Shown: positions 53,986 to 59,771, counted from the first letter of the stretch. The stretch: 64,000 nt of DNA from an uncultured Bacillota bacterium (GCA_905212975.1 CAJMGO010000001.1:110650-174649); one strand, 5' to 3'. Notes: generated from the letters alone by a model not told the origin. Numbers and translations are program-made.

Positions 53986-54306
53986 CTAATGCTTATTATT
54001 TTTTTCAAAAATTAACGGGTTATCATTCTTAATTTTTAAATTATATTTTATTAAAAGTATTTCTTTGATTTTTGGTATCATATCATCTATTGATTCTTGA
54101 TAACAACACAGCATATCAAATGTAGAATTAATATGATTATATAGAGGAGAATCACATAAACAATCTTTATAGAAACAATCTTTCAAATAAAATGCAATTG
54201 CTTCTGGAATGATAAAACTTACCATATATTTTTTAAAATTATTATCTATTGGAACAATTCTATTAAAGAATTCTTCATCTGATACATCTTTACCGTTTAG
54301 AATCAT
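53986..54306 (-). CDS. Hypothetical Cys-rich protein
   Basis: 106-aa ORF followed by a bidirectional hairpin AAGCATTAGT/ACTAATGCTT (53968-53996). Confidence 0.45.
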   Translation of the reverse strand: MILNGKDVSDEEFFNRIVPIDNNFKKYMVSFIIPEAIAFYLKDCFYKDCLCDSPLYNHINSTFDMLCCYQESIDDMIPKIKEILLIKYNLKIKNDNPLIFEKNNKH

Positions 54307-54582
54307 ATATAAATATCTTCTTTCAAAATAACTTCATCAACAACATTTTTATAATTATTCATTTTATTTTTTTTAGATAGTTTTTTATTTTTTTTTCCTG
54401 TAGTTATTCATCATAGTTTCAAATTTTATATTACATTCATTACTTACTGAAGAAAGATAGTCAGTAAGTTGATTATTCATTAGTAGGTTTCTATATAATT
54501 GTTTTTTATGTTTTTTAATATAATTTAGTTTTAACAATGATACGGATAAAATATAAATTATCCGTATGAATGAAAAAAACAA
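54303..54582 (-). pseudogene. TnpV-like gene remnant in two fragments
   Basis: KKHKKQLYRNLLMNNQLTDYLSSV... and, in another frame, MNNYKNVVDEVILKEDIYI* (54303-54362). These resemble the central and C-terminal parts of transposon protein TnpV as I recall them. The N-terminus is missing. Confidence 0.5.
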
Positions 54583-54587
54583 TATTG

Positions 54588-54639
54588 TTCCGCAAATGGT
54601 ATAAAATATATTGACATATTATTCCAGAAACGGTATAAT
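54588..54639 (+). promoter_or_regulatory. Promoter of the Fic/ATPase operon, with two 17-nt direct repeats that may be an operator
   Basis: TTGACA (54611-54616), 17-nt spacer, TATAAT (54634-54639). The repeats are TTCCGCAAATGGTATAA (54588-54604) and TTCCAGAAACGGTATAA (54622-54638). Confidence 0.55.
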
Positions 54640-54660
54640 CTATATATAGAGGTGATAACT

Positions 54661-55575
54661 ATGCAAATTAGAGAAGCTAGTGAAAAATGGAATATTAGTG
54701 AAAGAAGAATAAGACAACTTATTCAAGATGGAAGAATTGAAGGTGCTGAAAAAATAGGCACAACATGGAATATTCCAGATGATGCTAATAAGCCGATTGA
54801 TAAAAGGGTAAAAGATGAAATAGAATTCAAAATAGATCTACCTGAAGATTATTTTAAAGAAGTTGATGAAAAACTTGAAAAATTAAATAGTAAAAGGCCC
54901 TTATCTAAAGAAGCAACTGAGTCATTACAAAATGCAATTAATCTTGAATGGACATATAACAGTAATGGTATTGAAGGTAATACATTAACATTAAAAGAAA
55001 CTAAAGTAGTATTAGAAGGTATTACTATAGGTGGAAAGTCTGTAAGAGAGCACTTAGAAGCCATAAACCATGAAAATGCTATTGAATACTTAGAAGAATT
55101 AATTGGTACAAAAAGTGAAATATCCGAATGGAATATTAAAGGATTACATCAATTAGTTTTAAAAGGAATTGATGATGAAAATGCCGGAAAATATAGAAAT
55201 CATAATGTAATTATAGGTGGAGCACAACACAGACCACCAGAATATATAAAGGTTCCAGAATTGATGGAAAAATTAATGATGAACTATGATGAATGGGATA
55301 AATATCATCCAATAGTAAGAGCAGCATTATTGCATGGTGAATTAGTTAAAATTCATCCATTTATAGATGGAAATGGTAGAACATCTAGATTAATAATGAA
55401 TATGGAATTAATGAGAAGTGGATATGTACCAGTTATTATTAAAAAAGATAATAGATTAAAATATTATGAAGCACTCGATAAAGCGCATACAACAGGTGAT
55501 TATACTGATTTTGTTAAATTAGTAACAGAAGCGGAAAATGAAATGCTTGATAGATATTTATCAGTAATTGAATAA
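54661..55575 (+). CDS. Fic-family protein with an N-terminal HTH domain (intact)
   Basis: HTH-like MQIREASEKWNISERRIRQLIQDGRIEGAEKIG. The inhibitory motif is SNGIEG, and the catalytic motif HPFIDGNGRTSR is complete. Confidence 0.85.
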   Translation: MQIREASEKWNISERRIRQLIQDGRIEGAEKIGTTWNIPDDANKPIDKRVKDEIEFKIDLPEDYFKEVDEKLEKLNSKRPLSKEATESLQNAINLEWTYNSNGIEGNTLTLKETKVVLEGITIGGKSVREHLEAINHENAIEYLEELIGTKSEISEWNIKGLHQLVLKGIDDENAGKYRNHNVIIGGAQHRPPEYIKVPELMEKLMMNYDEWDKYHPIVRAALLHGELVKIHPFIDGNGRTSRLIMNMELMRSGYVPVIIKKDNRLKYYEALDKAHTTGDYTDFVKLVTEAENEMLDRYLSVIE

Positions 55576-55602
55576 TTATTAAAAATCAGGAGGTAGCAGT
55601 AT

Positions 55603-57564
55603 ATGTATGTTAATAATATCAAAATAAAAAATTATGGTTCAATAGAAGAACTTGAAATAAATGCAAGTTTAAACGAAGATGGTTCACCAAAGCCAATAAT
55701 TCTAATGGGAAAAAACGGATCAGGTAAAACACTTTTACTCTCTCAAATTATTCAAGCTATATTACTATATAAGTCTGATAAATATAATGAAATGCCTGAA
55801 AAAGATAAAAATCAACTATATAAAGTAATGTCTACATCATATATAAAAAATGATAAAGAAGAGTCTTTTGTTTCTGTATCATTTAACAATAAAAAATATA
55901 ACTATGTTGAAGTAATGAGTAAGAATCCAAATAATACTATTGAAAATAATAGTTATCCTGATTATACTTCAAAATTGAAAAATAATACTGACTTTAAAGG
56001 AACAGGAATGTATAACGATAAAACTGGAGAATTAGACTATGATAAAAATGTATGTCTATATTTTCCTGTTGATAGACATTATATACCAGGATGGAAAAAT
56101 AATAACTTAAAATCTAATATTGGAGCAGAAAATAAAATAATCGGCATAAATACAAGAAATGTATTATGTAATACAATACAAAATGATTTTGAAGGATTTA
56201 TTATTAATTCTGTGGTAGATCAATATTTATATGATCAAAAAAAATTTCTTAGAAATGGTGAAAGATTTTTAACAGATTCAGCAGGTAATCCGATAATTAA
56301 TTATATTGGCAAAAATAACAGTATAATTAATTTTATTAATAGTATACTTAGTGAGTTTAAGAATGATAAATATAACAGAAAAAGATTATATATAAGCAGA
56401 AAAGAAAACAGAAAAATTGGTGTAATGGGAATAAAAAATAATGGCGGTGATGAAGAAATTATTGACTCGTTTAGTAAACTTTCAACTGGCGAGTATTCAC
56501 TATTATCTATGTTTATTGCTATACTAATGGATTATGACAAAACTCAATCTAATAATTCATTTAATTTCCAAGACATTAAGGGAATTGTTCTTGTCGATGA
56601 AGCTGAATTAAATCTTCATATTGATTTGCAAATGAATGTTCTTCCAAGGTTGATGAAGAAATTTAAAAATGTTCAATTTATTATTACTACACAGTCTCCT
56701 TTTTTGATATATGGTATTAATGATATATATAAGGGTGCTTGTGATATATATGATATGCCTAAAGGAATTAAGGTTGAAAACATAATTGATTTATCCGAAG
56801 TAAAAAAAACATATGATGCATTGATTGAACATAATGAAAATTTATTTAGCTTAGTAAATCAAACAAAAAACAAAATTAAAGATTCAAATGCTGATTTAAT
56901 AGTTATAACCGAAGGAAAAACTGATCCTATTTATTTAAAAATGGCTAAGAATAAATTAGTAGTATTAAAAGATAAAAAAATAAAGTTTATTGGATTAAAA
57001 ACTGAAGACGCTAACAAATATCAAGATGAAGGCTGGACTGCTTTAAATAAATTAGCAGAAGCATTGACTGTTGTACCTCAAAGTGTGCCTGTAGTATTAA
57101 TGTATGATAGGGATGTTTTGATTAAAGAAATGCTAGAAAATAAATATCTTGAATTTTCTGAAAATATTTACAAAATGTGTATTCCTATACCATCACACAG
57201 AAATGATAGTAAAGATCTTTGTATAGAGCATTATTTTAAAGATAGTGAACTTAAACGAAAAGATGCTGAAGGAAGAAGATTATACTTAGGTAAAGAATTT
57301 AACAAAAACGGCATAAGTTATAAAGGAAATTTAATGTGTAAATCACTTGAAAAATGTGGTGCAGATAGTATAAAAATACTTGATGGATCAGGAAAAACTA
57401 AAATTTATGATCAAGGTGATGAAGAACAAAAAAATTTGGCACTTTCAAAAATTGCTTTTGCTAATAATATAAAAGATGAAATAGAAAATTTTAATGATTT
57501 TAATTTTAAAGAATTTAATAGTATTTTTTCTATTTTTGAAGAAATAATAAATATAAAAAAATAG
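55603..57564 (+). CDS. ABC/AAA_15-21-type ATPase fused to a TOPRIM-like (OLD / DUF4435-like) C-terminal domain
   Basis: Walker A GKNGSGKT, signature-like LSTGEYSLLS, Walker B IVLVDEAELNLH, and ITTQSPF. The C-terminal domain has IVITEGKTD ... LMYDRD (E ... DxD). Confidence 0.75.
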   Translation: MYVNNIKIKNYGSIEELEINASLNEDGSPKPIILMGKNGSGKTLLLSQIIQAILLYKSDKYNEMPEKDKNQLYKVMSTSYIKNDKEESFVSVSFNNKKYNYVEVMSKNPNNTIENNSYPDYTSKLKNNTDFKGTGMYNDKTGELDYDKNVCLYFPVDRHYIPGWKNNNLKSNIGAENKIIGINTRNVLCNTIQNDFEGFIINSVVDQYLYDQKKFLRNGERFLTDSAGNPIINYIGKNNSIINFINSILSEFKNDKYNRKRLYISRKENRKIGVMGIKNNGGDEEIIDSFSKLSTGEYSLLSMFIAILMDYDKTQSNNSFNFQDIKGIVLVDEAELNLHIDLQMNVLPRLMKKFKNVQFIITTQSPFLIYGINDIYKGACDIYDMPKGIKVENIIDLSEVKKTYDALIEHNENLFSLVNQTKNKIKDSNADLIVITEGKTDPIYLKMAKNKLVVLKDKKIKFIGLKTEDANKYQDEGWTALNKLAEALTVVPQSVPVVLMYDRDVLIKEMLENKYLEFSENIYKMCIPIPSHRNDSKDLCIEHYFKDSELKRKDAEGRRLYLGKEFNKNGISYKGNLMCKSLEKCGADSIKILDGSGKTKIYDQGDEEQKNLALSKIAFANNIKDEIENFNDFNFKEFNSIFSIFEEIINIKK

Positions 57565-57565
57565 C

Positions 57566-58677
57566 TTAGTCATCTTCTAAGCTATCTATAACAGAAACAA
57601 CAGAGTCGAGGGCAGTACTAAACATATGTGAATATGTGTTTAGTGTTTCCTCGATTTTTGTATGCCCTAAATATTTTGCAAATAATGTAACATTAGCACC
57701 ATTATTAATAAGTAGTGATGCATAAGAATGCCTAAAGTCATGAATCCTAATAACTTTTAAACCAGCAAGATTAGCTAGTTTAGTTCTTCTAAGTTATATA
57801 TTAGAATCAGCTATAGGTTTAGCATCAGATACAGCAAAGAAATCATCATTAAATCCGTAATACTCTTTTTTATTCTGTTCATAGAGCATTTTAAGGCCAT
57901 TTAACAAGACTTTAGTAATGGGAACTATTCTTCTACTATCTCTTGCCTTAGTATTCGAAAATTCAAACTTTAAGTAGTTATTTCTTTGCGTTATTTGCTT
58001 ATTAACTGATAATACTTTTTTATCAAAATAAATATCCTTCCAAGTAAGTCCTTTTAATTCTCCTTTACGAAGTCCATAGTAATAAAATATTTCAAATACA
58101 CATTTTCATCTCAGATCATCTTCATAAGAAATAAACTTTTTAAATTCATCATAAGTATAATAAGCCATTTCTTTTCTACGTTCATTAGGATCTTGGAACT
58201 TTGTCATTTTATTATATACTGCTTGAAAGTTTAAGTTATGCCATTTAACACCAAAATTCAATATAGATTTAGGAAATTTATAAATATTATTTTTATATCT
58301 AAGAGATATATTAATTTTATTTATCTCTCGTTTCCATTGCTCAAACTGCATGATATTAAAATCTTTCAATTTAACAGTAAAGAAGCATTCTATGAACTTT
58401 TCTTTATTATCATACACCATACTTAGTAGTATCTTTCATTATTTCATCATTATGCATTCTAAATTCATCATATAAATCTTTAAATGTCATATTATTATCT
58501 TCAACTTTATCAGTAGAAGTAACTAAAAACATTCTTTCTGCATCAGATGCTTCTTTTTTTGGTTAAATATTTTTTAGATCTATATTGTTTAGTAGCACCA
58601 AATGCATCTTTATAGCTAAACTTAAAATACCAAGCTCTACCATTTTTAGTAGGTTTAGGATCTTTGTAAACTGCCAT
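57566..58677 (-). pseudogene. Tyrosine recombinase (phage-type integrase) with at least two frameshifts and two in-frame stops
   Basis: The N-terminus MAVYKDPKPTKNGRAWYFKFSYKD..KKYLTKK breaks in an A7 run (T-run 58554-58560 on +). A second frame change lies near 58420. In-frame stops are TGA at 58106-58108 and TAA at 57794-57796. The catalytic R (ARDSRRIVP), HDFRHS, LGH and Y (NTYSHM) are still readable. Confidence 0.8.
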
Positions 58678-58828
58678 TATTTCACCAGCTTTCTTGTAGA
58701 AATCCCTAATTGGTGATATAATTAAATACGAGAAATCTCCAAAATTATATTTATTATAATTATTAAAGTTTACCAGACCTTTTTAATTAAGGATTTTTCA
58801 TTTTGATCACTGTTCAAGCAGTGGTTTT

Positions 58829-59357
58829 TTAGTCATAATATCTTTTAACTTGAACTGCAGAGCCAATAACTCTAAAGTCCTCATATTCAATAGTACCTTT
58901 TAAATAAGTAGTAGGTTTAAAATCACCACCAAGATTTAAAGGCATAACCATTATTCCATCATTTATAGTAATAAGTTTTCTAATTGTTACTATATCTTGC
59001 CCTTTTTCCATAACACAATAAAATCCATCTTTAGTCATCTTATTTTGTTCTCTAAGTATTATATAATCATTTTGATGAAACTCAGGATCCATAGTATTAT
59101 CAGGCATAATTAATCCAAAATAACTTTGTTTGTTCTTTATCCATTCTGGAGGTATTAGTTCTTCAACAACTTTAAATGCATTAGTTTTATCAGATAATAT
59201 ATTTCCAAAATATATTTTAGAAAAAACATCAACTATAACGGTGTCATCATTTAATAGATCATCTTCATCTTCAAGCATCTCTTCAATTAAATCAGATTTC
59301 TTGATAACAAAGTAATCAGCAATCATATTAATTTTTTCTACTCTTGGAAATATTTTA
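58829..59357 (-). pseudogene. LexA/CI-type repressor remnant: S24 peptidase-like domain with only the tail of its HTH
   Basis: The S24-like core reads MPDNTMDPEF (where GDSM is expected) ... VTIRKL. The frame stays open upstream of the ATG and reads ..KIFPRVEKINMIADYF, the end of an XRE HTH. It then runs into the hsdS fragment. Confidence 0.55.
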
Positions 59358-59771
59358 GTGTATGAACAACTAACACAATATATTGTTGAATCAACAAATT
59401 ATAGTGACGCTTATAAAACACCTGTTTTAACTGCAGGAAAGAGTTTTATATTAGGATACACTAAAGAAGAAACTGGGATATTTAATAAATTACCAGTTAT
59501 AATATTTGATGATTTTACTACTTCATCTAAATATGTTGATTTTCCATTTAAAGTTAAATCATCCGAAATGAAAATATTAAATTGTAATCCGGGGATGAAT
59601 ATAAAATTTTACTATTATTTGTTACAATCTCTTGATTATGATGCATCTACTCATAAACGTTATTGGATATCTGAATCTGCTCAAATGACTGTTCCTTTTC
59701 CAACAAAAGAGGAACAGGATAAAATTGTAAAAAATGTAGAACAATTATTAAATTTAATTGATCAAATATAA
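59358..59771 (+). pseudogene. hsdS: Type I restriction-modification specificity subunit (HsdS) fragment with a single TRD
   Basis: YKTPVLTAGKSFILGYT ... VIIFDDFTTSSKYVDFPFKVKSS.MKIL ... EEQDKIV. It lacks an N-terminal half, and there is no hsdM or hsdR nearby. Confidence 0.6.

Follow-up and report, generated by a model that had tools for sequence, protein, structure and literature searches.

Do the two adjacent genes of an apparent operon, one for a helix-turn-helix (HTH)-Fic protein and one for an ATPase-Toprim fusion protein, form a dedicated defence system, or do they meet at a site through which unrelated immune genes are exchanged? The question is raised by positions 54,588 to 57,564 of a 64,000-nt stretch of DNA from an uncultured Bacillota bacterium (GCA_905212975.1 CAJMGO010000001.1:110650-174649), the whole of which we call the window. 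The locus is a defence hotspot in which the ATPase-Toprim gene (gene 2) is one cargo, and it does not form a co-evolving pair with the HTH-Fic gene (gene 1) that precedes it. It is likely that gene 2 encodes a stand-alone abortive-infection nuclease of the ATPase-Toprim type, carried as exchangeable cargo behind an HTH-Fic leader in the defence hotspot of a decayed element. The features from which the answer starts are the following.

54661..55575, plus strand: gene 1, HTH-Fic, 304 aa (Pfam Fic match, motifs, FICD homology)
55579..57557, no strand assigned: variable cargo slot from the Fic stop to the integrase stop, delimited by breakpoints; the occupant in the window is the ATPase-Toprim gene with its own ribosome-binding site
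57566..58677, minus strand: tyrosine integrase, now a pseudogene (two frameshifts, in-frame stops), which forms the conserved flank to the right of the slot

When related loci were compared with the window (blastn, ~35 loci), DNA homology was found to end at 55559-55594, the Fic stop codon being at 55575, and to resume only at 57545-57573, the integrase stop lying at ~57566. A metagenome scan with the Fic sequence gave 69 loci, predominantly from the human gut, and clustering of the first downstream open reading frame (ORF) indicated that Fic proteins 88-97% identical to gene 1, from ~60 metagenomic loci, precede at least 20 unrelated cargo families. Individual Fic homologs tell the same story: one at 91% identity is followed by three unknown ORFs and then the integrase, one at 86% by PDC-M11A and PDC-M11B, and one at 74% by a Macro domain. 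The cargoes were distributed as follows.

PDC-M11A: 12 loci
ATPase-Toprim: 7 loci, including the window
Unknown 356-aa protein: 7 loci
PDC-M04A / DUF3800: 7 loci
Unknown 351-aa protein: 4 loci
PD-T4-6 kinase: 3 loci
PD-T7-4 / DUF4145: 2 loci
HsdR: 1 locus
OLD-like ATPase: 1 locus
AbiD: 1 locus

Several further families in the slot had no Pfam or PADLOC match. It is evident that the slot has what characterizes a hotspot: its flanks are conserved, its breakpoints are sharp, and its cargoes are numerous, unrelated and rich in known defence genes. In a neighbour-joining tree of the Fic proteins the cargo types are interleaved, with ATPase-Toprim genes in at least three separate places, and these interleaved cargoes together with the sharp breakpoints point to repeated cassette exchange between the two conserved flanks. 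A similar arrangement, with conserved integrase-side flanks between which unrelated defence systems are exchanged, is known from the P2/P4 hotspots of Escherichia coli (Rousset et al. 2022). The present slot differs from them in its host, a low-GC gut member of the Bacilli, and in its anchor, an HTH-Fic gene that would also supply the promoter. No description of a Fic-anchored hotspot was found in the literature searched.

The preliminary description of this DNA had presented the two genes as a dedicated two-gene module, and had named the conservation of both neighbours across genomes as the test that could refute it. The pair was found only in the closest copies. Fic is kept upstream of gene 2 copies that are 88-98% identical (7 loci including the window), among them the 92% identical copy of locus L081, which has a different left context. 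The copies at 67%, 58% and 47% identity have no adjacent Fic, the 58% identical one directly abutting a phage integrase, and the ~33% identical homologs in Parageobacillus and Enterobacter are solitary. In the Fic-less loci, homology to the window begins just 20-30 nt before the gene 2 ATG. Near a few gene 2 homologs, at a distance of some kb, lies a Fic-like gene that is unrelated. A contig scan with gene 2, in which the matches listed were mostly distant ATPase-only relatives, served solely as a negative control for the adjacency of Fic; among the matches listed, tblastn with Fic placed a Fic-like sequence within 6 kb of 2-3 of ~22 distant Toprim-carrying loci. Seen from the other side, gene 1 has more than 100 clusters of homologs at 72% identity or higher, which far outnumber the close relatives of gene 2.

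A two-component system, in which for instance AMPylation would control or complement the nuclease, could be read from the shared orientation, the 27-nt gap and the single strong promoter, from the recurrence of the pair in 7 loci with different left flanks, and from the state of both genes, which are intact beside pseudogenes, as had been noted, and under purifying selection (dN/dS, the ratio of non-synonymous to synonymous substitution, of 0.059 for gene 1 and 0.10 for gene 2 against the 90-93% identical copy of L081). Against it stand the gene 2 homologs below ~90% identity, which do without Fic, the at least 20 other cargoes behind the same Fic, scattered on the Fic tree, and the fact that the PDC-M11A/B, PD-T7-4, PD-T4-6 and HsdR cargoes are defined without Fic. 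We regard a dedicated pair as very unlikely. A toxin-antitoxin relation between Fic and cargo was also considered and was rejected because the cargoes are large, diverse and autonomous systems.

The slot offers some further observations. A 599-aa cargo behind the same Fic (L131 5935-7734) matches the PADLOC Old and AriA models, so that at this site the ATPase-Toprim, which the models do not recognise, is interchangeable with an OLD-like protein that they do. Recurrent cargoes without a match comprise groups of 356+112+230 aa and 351+117+181 aa and proteins of 578-593, 253-268 and 420-453 aa (L088 4992-7058, L124 5983-7940, L114 5943-7679, L117 4796-5557 and L119 5921-7282, respectively), which by their position are candidate new defence genes. 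With about half of the slot cargo families lacking a match to a known defence model, the slot could be a practical source of new candidate systems.

If gene 2 is a cargo in its own right, what kind of protein does it encode? Its structure is as first described, with an AGGAGG at 55588-55593, a start codon at 55603, 27 nt after gene 1, and a stop at 57564, giving 653 aa. All the motifs quoted from it were found in the translation, at residues 36-43 (GKNGSGKT), 293-297 (LSTGE), 329-339 (VLVDEAELNLH), 362-366 (TTQSP), 435-441 (ITEGKTD) and 500-504 (MYDRD). The reading of the protein as an ABC ATPase joined to a Toprim with the Glu...DxD pattern was borne out by the AAA_21 match and by homology to retron Eco2 (see below). 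Two parts can be delimited.

55603..56790, plus strand: N-terminal ABC ATPase head, aa 1-395 (Walker A 36-43, signature 293-297, Walker B D332/E333, H339)
56791..57564, plus strand: linker helix (aa 395-427) and C-terminal Toprim of the retron-Eco2 type

The ATPase head matches Pfam AAA_21 (4.3e-13, 50.4 bits), and its best match is PtuA of Septu and retron I-A, by sequence in PADLOC (2.5e-30) and the PDB (retron Ec83 PtuA, 1.6e-14), and by structure in Foldseek with an AlphaFold2 (AF2) model (predicted local distance difference test, pLDDT, 83.5), where PtuA came out on top (E 7e-14). The NCBIfam PtuA equivalog scores 55.7 bits on gene 2, its cutoff being 500. PtuA partners a separate HNH nuclease, PtuB, whereas gene 2 has a fused Toprim instead; no HNH or PtuB gene is adjacent to it, its downstream neighbour being the convergent integrase pseudogene.

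The C-terminal 260 residues match no Pfam family at E up to 10, DUF4435 (PF14491) included. Of the profiles first put forward for comparison, Fic and AAA_21 were recovered and DUF4435 was not. In PADLOC, the Toprim half is matched by RT-Toprim_I-C (8.6e-20), by RT-TIR_XII (7e-14) and weakly by AbiLii, and by none of the Old, GajA, AriB, HEC-04 or ATPase-Toprim_I-B models. A profile built from 19 family members finds the reverse transcriptase (RT)-Toprim protein of retron Ec67/Eco2, type I-C (9lm3, 9i2f; 1.5e-6), in which ITEGKTD is identical and the DxD and the C-terminal helix match as well. The Eco2 Toprim acts as an RNase and nicks the acceptor stems of tRNA, with E374, D460 and D462 as ligands of metal A and D378, S513 and E515 as ligands of metal B (PMC12405507, PMC12916289). 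Its E374, D378, D460 and D462 correspond to E437, D441, D502 and D504 of gene 2, and these four residues do not vary among the 25 aligned family members, which are only 30-35% identical overall; nor do E542, R559 and K616. The AF2 model of the domain (pLDDT 86, predicted TM-score, pTM, 0.83) has the beta-alpha-beta layout of a Toprim, in which E437 follows strand 1 and the DxD follows strand 3. Foldseek matches to the PDB were weak, so the Toprim assignment draws mainly on the Eco2 sequence homology and modestly on the fold search; against viral structures (BFVD) nothing was found below E 0.06. The structural comparisons that had been suggested came out unevenly: AriB was the best specific match (probability 0.99, E 7.5e-3) at a TM-score (TM) of only ~0.3, and TsOLD compared poorly, with a probability of 0.51 for the Toprim alone and, for the full-length protein (PDB 6p74), rank 50 at E 1.6e-9 over 578 columns with TM 0.21/0.26.

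Gene 2 differs from Eco2 in its regulatory partner. Eco2 has a reverse transcriptase and a cage of multicopy single-stranded DNA (msDNA), which holds it as a trimer, whereas in gene 2 no RVT domain was found, the N-terminus is the ABC ATPase, and this fused ATPase would take the regulatory place. The two domains stand in a single chain, with neither a helicase nor an RT as neighbour.

Defence by ABC ATPases with Toprim domains is well documented and includes OLD classes 1-4, Gabija, PARIS with its fused form, Wadjet and the single-gene HEC-04, a validated ATPase-Toprim fusion (PMC10568477, PMC9122126, 10.1101/2024.01.29.577857); single-gene defence of this kind is already established for class 1 OLD, fused PARIS and HEC-04. 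Gene 2 shares the architecture of these systems and probably their logic. It could therefore be asked whether it is simply a divergent member of one of them, fused PARIS, class 1 OLD or HEC-04. Besides the common order of an ABC ATPase followed by a Toprim at the C-terminus, and the existence of HEC-04, there is some resemblance in detail. PARIS, with AriA and the tRNA nuclease AriB, likewise has an ABC ATPase controlling a Toprim and likewise sits in a mobile-element hotspot by an integrase. Its rule calls for an AAA_15 or AAA_21 ATPase above threshold (PMC9122126), and the AAA_21 score of gene 2 lies above that threshold of 27 bits; the DefenseFinder profile for fused AAA_21+DUF4435 has a low cutoff of 20 bits, so that the ATPase part alone could trigger a call. 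The PADLOC AriA model matches at 2.7e-15, AriB is the specific structural match already mentioned, and TsOLD aligns over the 578 columns given above. The metal site of class 1 OLD proteins, a family that includes TsOLD and YbjD and to which P2 Old belongs, itself found in a prophage hotspot and cutting tRNA, consists of a Glu, a DxD and a second acidic cluster, and these are present in gene 2 as E437, D502, D504 and the residues D441 and E542. On the other side, DUF4435 is not detectable and the ATPase is nearer to PtuA than to AriA. The OLD and HEC-04 models have no match on the Toprim half (HEC models being part of the PADLOC set used, and the full-length PADLOC results being the best 25 of 68 families), and the overlap with TsOLD is structurally poor (TM 0.2-0.26). 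Judged by sequence, the ATPase half comes nearest to PtuA and the Toprim half to retron I-C (with retron XII next), and by the models of its Toprim gene 2 falls outside OLD and PARIS. We think membership of a named system rather improbable.

A second doubt concerns whether gene 2 is an immune gene at all. ABC ATPase/Toprim proteins can have non-defence roles (PMC12796447), and some gene 2 homologs lie in unremarkable neighbourhoods, so that a function in DNA repair, in maintenance of or addiction to the element, or in cell-cycle control as with the archaeal OLD-like Cran1 might be imagined. The context argues otherwise and supports the defence role proposed at the outset, the slot being otherwise occupied by recognised defence genes. 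In addition, the family is patchy across phyla (243 clusters at E <=1e-5, mostly of ~650 aa, in Firmicutes, Bacteroidota and Proteobacteria), and a full-length, 29% identical homolog in Selenomonas ruminantium lies between hsdM/hsdS and hsdR within a type I restriction-modification operon (L104 2237-11935). The Toprim domain, moreover, is common to retron, NLR-like and SLFN fusions. Its family profile retrieved 2233 representatives at E <=0.001 (768 at <=1e-30), in which the Eco2-type Toprim has as fusion partners ABC ATPases, an FtsK-type ATPase, NB-ARC + TPR, TPR arrays or a Sacsin/Schlafen-like protein, with short forms too; to be joined so promiscuously to other modules is typical of the effector domains of immunity. 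A non-immune role seems to us most improbable.

Three side observations belong to this family. Beside the restriction-modification genes of L104 there are small genes for a nucleotidyltransferase, a P4 cII-like protein, a RES protein and a second AAA_15/21 ATPase, an arrangement of embedded defence. Examples of the non-ABC fusions are P0279, P0362, P0365 and P0376, with FtsK/SpoIIIE, NB-ARC + TPR (NLR-like), TPR arrays and a 1607-aa Sacsin/Schlafen-like protein, and in some of the non-ABC fusions the Toprim is at the N-terminus. Downstream of the 67% identical gene 2 homolog of L082 (8702-10721) are a group II intron reverse transcriptase and a 211-aa gene with a weak Fic domain; this locus further carries Mob_Pre, Zeta toxin and YhcG-like nuclease genes, so that a plasmid, or a mobilisable element that has integrated, is the probable setting. 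As for phages, gene 2 matches phrog_8323 (function unknown) from end to end, which indicates that phages carry the family, and tblastn against GenBank phages gave partial matches only, in unannotated faecal contigs.

How, then, might such a cargo work? We infer that the ATPase head of gene 2 would oligomerise and keep the nuclease silent until a phage cue altered its ATP-dependent conformation and freed the two-metal Toprim site (E437/D502/D504 and D441/E542). The freed nuclease would then cut nucleic acid and abort the infection. Its target would most likely be host tRNA or another RNA, since the homologous Eco2 and the more distant AriB and P2 Old cut tRNA (PMC12445682, PMC12409363, PMC12916289). 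At the level of the locus, the region would represent the end, on the integrase side, of an integrative element that is prophage-like and decayed and belongs to a low-GC lineage of human-gut Bacilli; in this element the HTH-Fic leader and the convergent integrase flank the slot and unrelated defence cassettes are swapped by recombination in these flanks. The promoter of HTH-Fic would also drive whatever cargo lies downstream, and HTH-Fic would be no specific partner of the ATPase-Toprim.

Several points weigh against this account. The RNA substrate is an extrapolation from homologs, and other OLD-family Toprims cut DNA. In its model, the Toprim domain is structurally only a weak match to solved Toprims. 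The pair does recur, in 7 loci that share the same 27-nt junction and a single promoter, from which we take the transcriptional coupling to be real and functional crosstalk to be possible, and almost every cargo stands behind the same Fic, which could act for all of them. Finally, no element ends (att sites) were found; when the rest of the window was searched for att-like direct repeats of the left boundary, only AT-rich noise came up.

If confirmed, gene 2 would stand for a widespread and uncharacterised single-gene family that joins a Septu-type ATPase to an RNase domain of the retron-Eco2 type, and would offer a simple protein-only model of an ABC ATPase gating a Toprim nuclease. The Eco2-type Toprim would have to be seen as a promiscuous immune effector, and the Fic-to-integrase slot as a compact and easily searchable hotspot in uncultured human-gut Bacilli.

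What is the role of the leader that all these cargoes have in common? The most likely start of gene 1 is the ATG at 54661, behind AGAGGTGA, and the gene stops at 55575. Its product consists of an excisionase/MerR-type HTH (aa 1-55), an SNGIEG motif (aa 101-106) and a Fic core (Pfam Fic, 82 bits) with HPFIDGNGRTSR at aa 232-243. The latter satisfies the active-site motif HxFx(D/E)GNGRxxR, and SNGIEG has the form of the inhibitory-helix motif (S/T)xxxE(G/N), located in the same chain on the N-terminal side of the core. Among solved structures FICD/HYPE come closest (E 6e-39); there, TVAIEGN aligns with SNGIEG and HPFIDGNGRTSR is identical; by this alignment gene 1 is predicted to be a class-II, FICD-like AMPylase, in agreement with the initial reading as an HTH fused to a class-II Fic with an inhibitory and a complete Fic motif. 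The HTH is matched weakly by Pfam HTH_17 (E 0.0016) and TIGR01764 (0.0014), and by an excisionase family of PHROGs (1.4e-9). In PADLOC, gene 1 matches PDC-S04 (1.5e-38) and SoFic (1.2e-35), the latter over profile positions 29-271 of 361, and the equivalog level of SoFic is not reached (NCBIfam, 34.5 bits against a cutoff of 550). Gene 1 has the Fic core and inhibitory helix in common with FICD/HYPE, and differs by its N-terminal excisionase-type HTH from FICD, which has TPR there, and from SoFic, which has a C-terminal domain. A close Fic homolog carries the label "Bacilli bacterium" in one source.

The upstream region contains the following elements.

54611..54639, plus strand: sigma-70-type promoter, TTGACA (54611-54616), 17-nt spacer, TATAAT (54634-54639)
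54582-54611 and 54616-54645, plus strand: two 30-nt direct repeats, 34 nt apart, 80% identity
54588-54601 and 54622-54635, plus strand: operator-like palindromes, one per repeat, T(T/A)CC-N6-GG(T/A)A, consensus TACCG-N4-CGGTA

A perfect promoter embedded in two direct repeats had been described here, and both stand, the repeats extending to 30 nt around the cores TTCCGCAAATGGTA (at 54588) and TTCCAGAAACGGTA (at 54622). This is the only 12/12 promoter match in 54300-57900 and is kept in L081, L088 and L094; taken together, promoter-like sites show no enrichment in DNA of this composition, 25% GC (24 observed, 30 expected from shuffles). The pattern TWCC-N6-GGWA occurs three times in the 64-kb window, twice of these in the HTH-Fic promoter, where the second palindrome overlaps the -10 box. 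The palindrome is found upstream of Fic homologs down to 50-57% identity, 35-48 nt before their start codons and in some loci also at ~73 nt, with half-sites kept and spacers varying. Such conservation over the -10 box supports an operator bound by a protein, for which the HTH of Fic is the predicted binder. The idea of autoregulation first put forward thus gains support, and HTH-Fic is probably autoregulated through the two TACCG-N4-CGGTA operators over its own promoter.

From here it is a short step to a generic gatekeeper of the slot, which would repress the shared promoter, release it upon infection or stress, perhaps through its own AMPylation state, and so be coupled to every cargo at the level of expression. 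Apart from the conserved palindromes, this would fit with cargo genes that begin 5-70 nt past the Fic stop, often without an obvious promoter, with the Fic-less loci in which homology starts only shortly before the gene 2 ATG, and with the strong conservation of Fic (dN/dS 0.06). It is at odds with a weak promoter-like site in the 3' end of Fic (10/12, 55547-55576), with the same cargoes working elsewhere without Fic, and with Fic alone being already listed as defence, SoFic and PDC-S04 being single-gene candidates in PADLOC; a 44% identical HTH-Fic also occurs on its own in Streptococcus prophage Javan422, as a moron that lies between the genes for terminase and portal. We hold such a gatekeeper to be possible and on balance unlikely. 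The same doubt applies to its more explicit form, the controller of a plug-in defence platform, which would bind the predicted operators and hold the promoter for any downstream cassette; and it is equally tentative that, as a switchable AMPylase/deAMPylase, it would sense infection or stress and then release expression or modify a common target. Were it true, gut Bacilli would have a single regulator in the service of more than 20 unrelated immune cargoes.

Two observations concern the edges of the Fic gene. The promoter-like site at its 3' end, TTGATA-18-AATAAT, lies in the final Fic codons before the cargo and is insignificant alone in AT-rich DNA; if real, it would provide every cargo with a Fic-independent promoter. 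At the 5' side, an ORF of 107-110 aa is found between the shared leader/promoter and Fic in about one third of the Fic loci (L088 3675-3998; L124 4657-4989), with the same first codons as Fic (MQIK...) and irrespective of the cargo type. It could be a regulator or antitoxin of Fic, comparable to AS1, a small protein that reportedly adjoins SoFic. A class-I-type Fic antitoxin was considered for the 107-aa ORF and set aside; it had no family match in PADLOC or PHROGs, and no (S/T)xxxE(G/N) was seen in it in an unsystematic look by eye.

To the right of gene 2 the element is degraded. The integrase pseudogene is in pieces 92-98% identical to the intact 369-aa integrase of L089, and two more features follow from its surroundings.

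57559..57587, minus strand: hairpin and T-run, terminator of the convergent integrase, overlapping the gene 2 stop codon
58829..59326, minus strand: truncated CI/LexA-like repressor with the S24 peptidase domain only and no HTH

In related loci the integrase, the S24 repressor, a Cro-like HTH and phage replication genes are all intact. The comparison of the decayed integrase and repressor with these relatives indicates that the integrative element in the window has decayed, while Fic and its cargo are still under purifying selection. Everything around the two genes had been described as decaying; this holds for the right flank, with its integrase pseudogene and HTH-less repressor, and decay of the left flank was not shown. 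Homology to related elements stops at 59354, and a 137-aa HsdS fragment follows the repressor in the right flank (57566-59771). The GC content of the host is 24.7%.

The left end of the conserved module is sharp as well.

54524..54578, no strand assigned: boundary at the left of the conserved HTH-Fic module, marked by an inverted repeat, at the start of homology in ~45 loci

In these ~45 independent loci homology begins at 54524 or 54529, and the flanks upstream differ. The inverted repeat, with arms at 54529-54549 and 54558-54578 and the core ATACGGATAA/TTATCCGTAT, coincides with this start. It does not have the form of a canonical terminator and may be a site of recombination, an element end or a protein-binding site.

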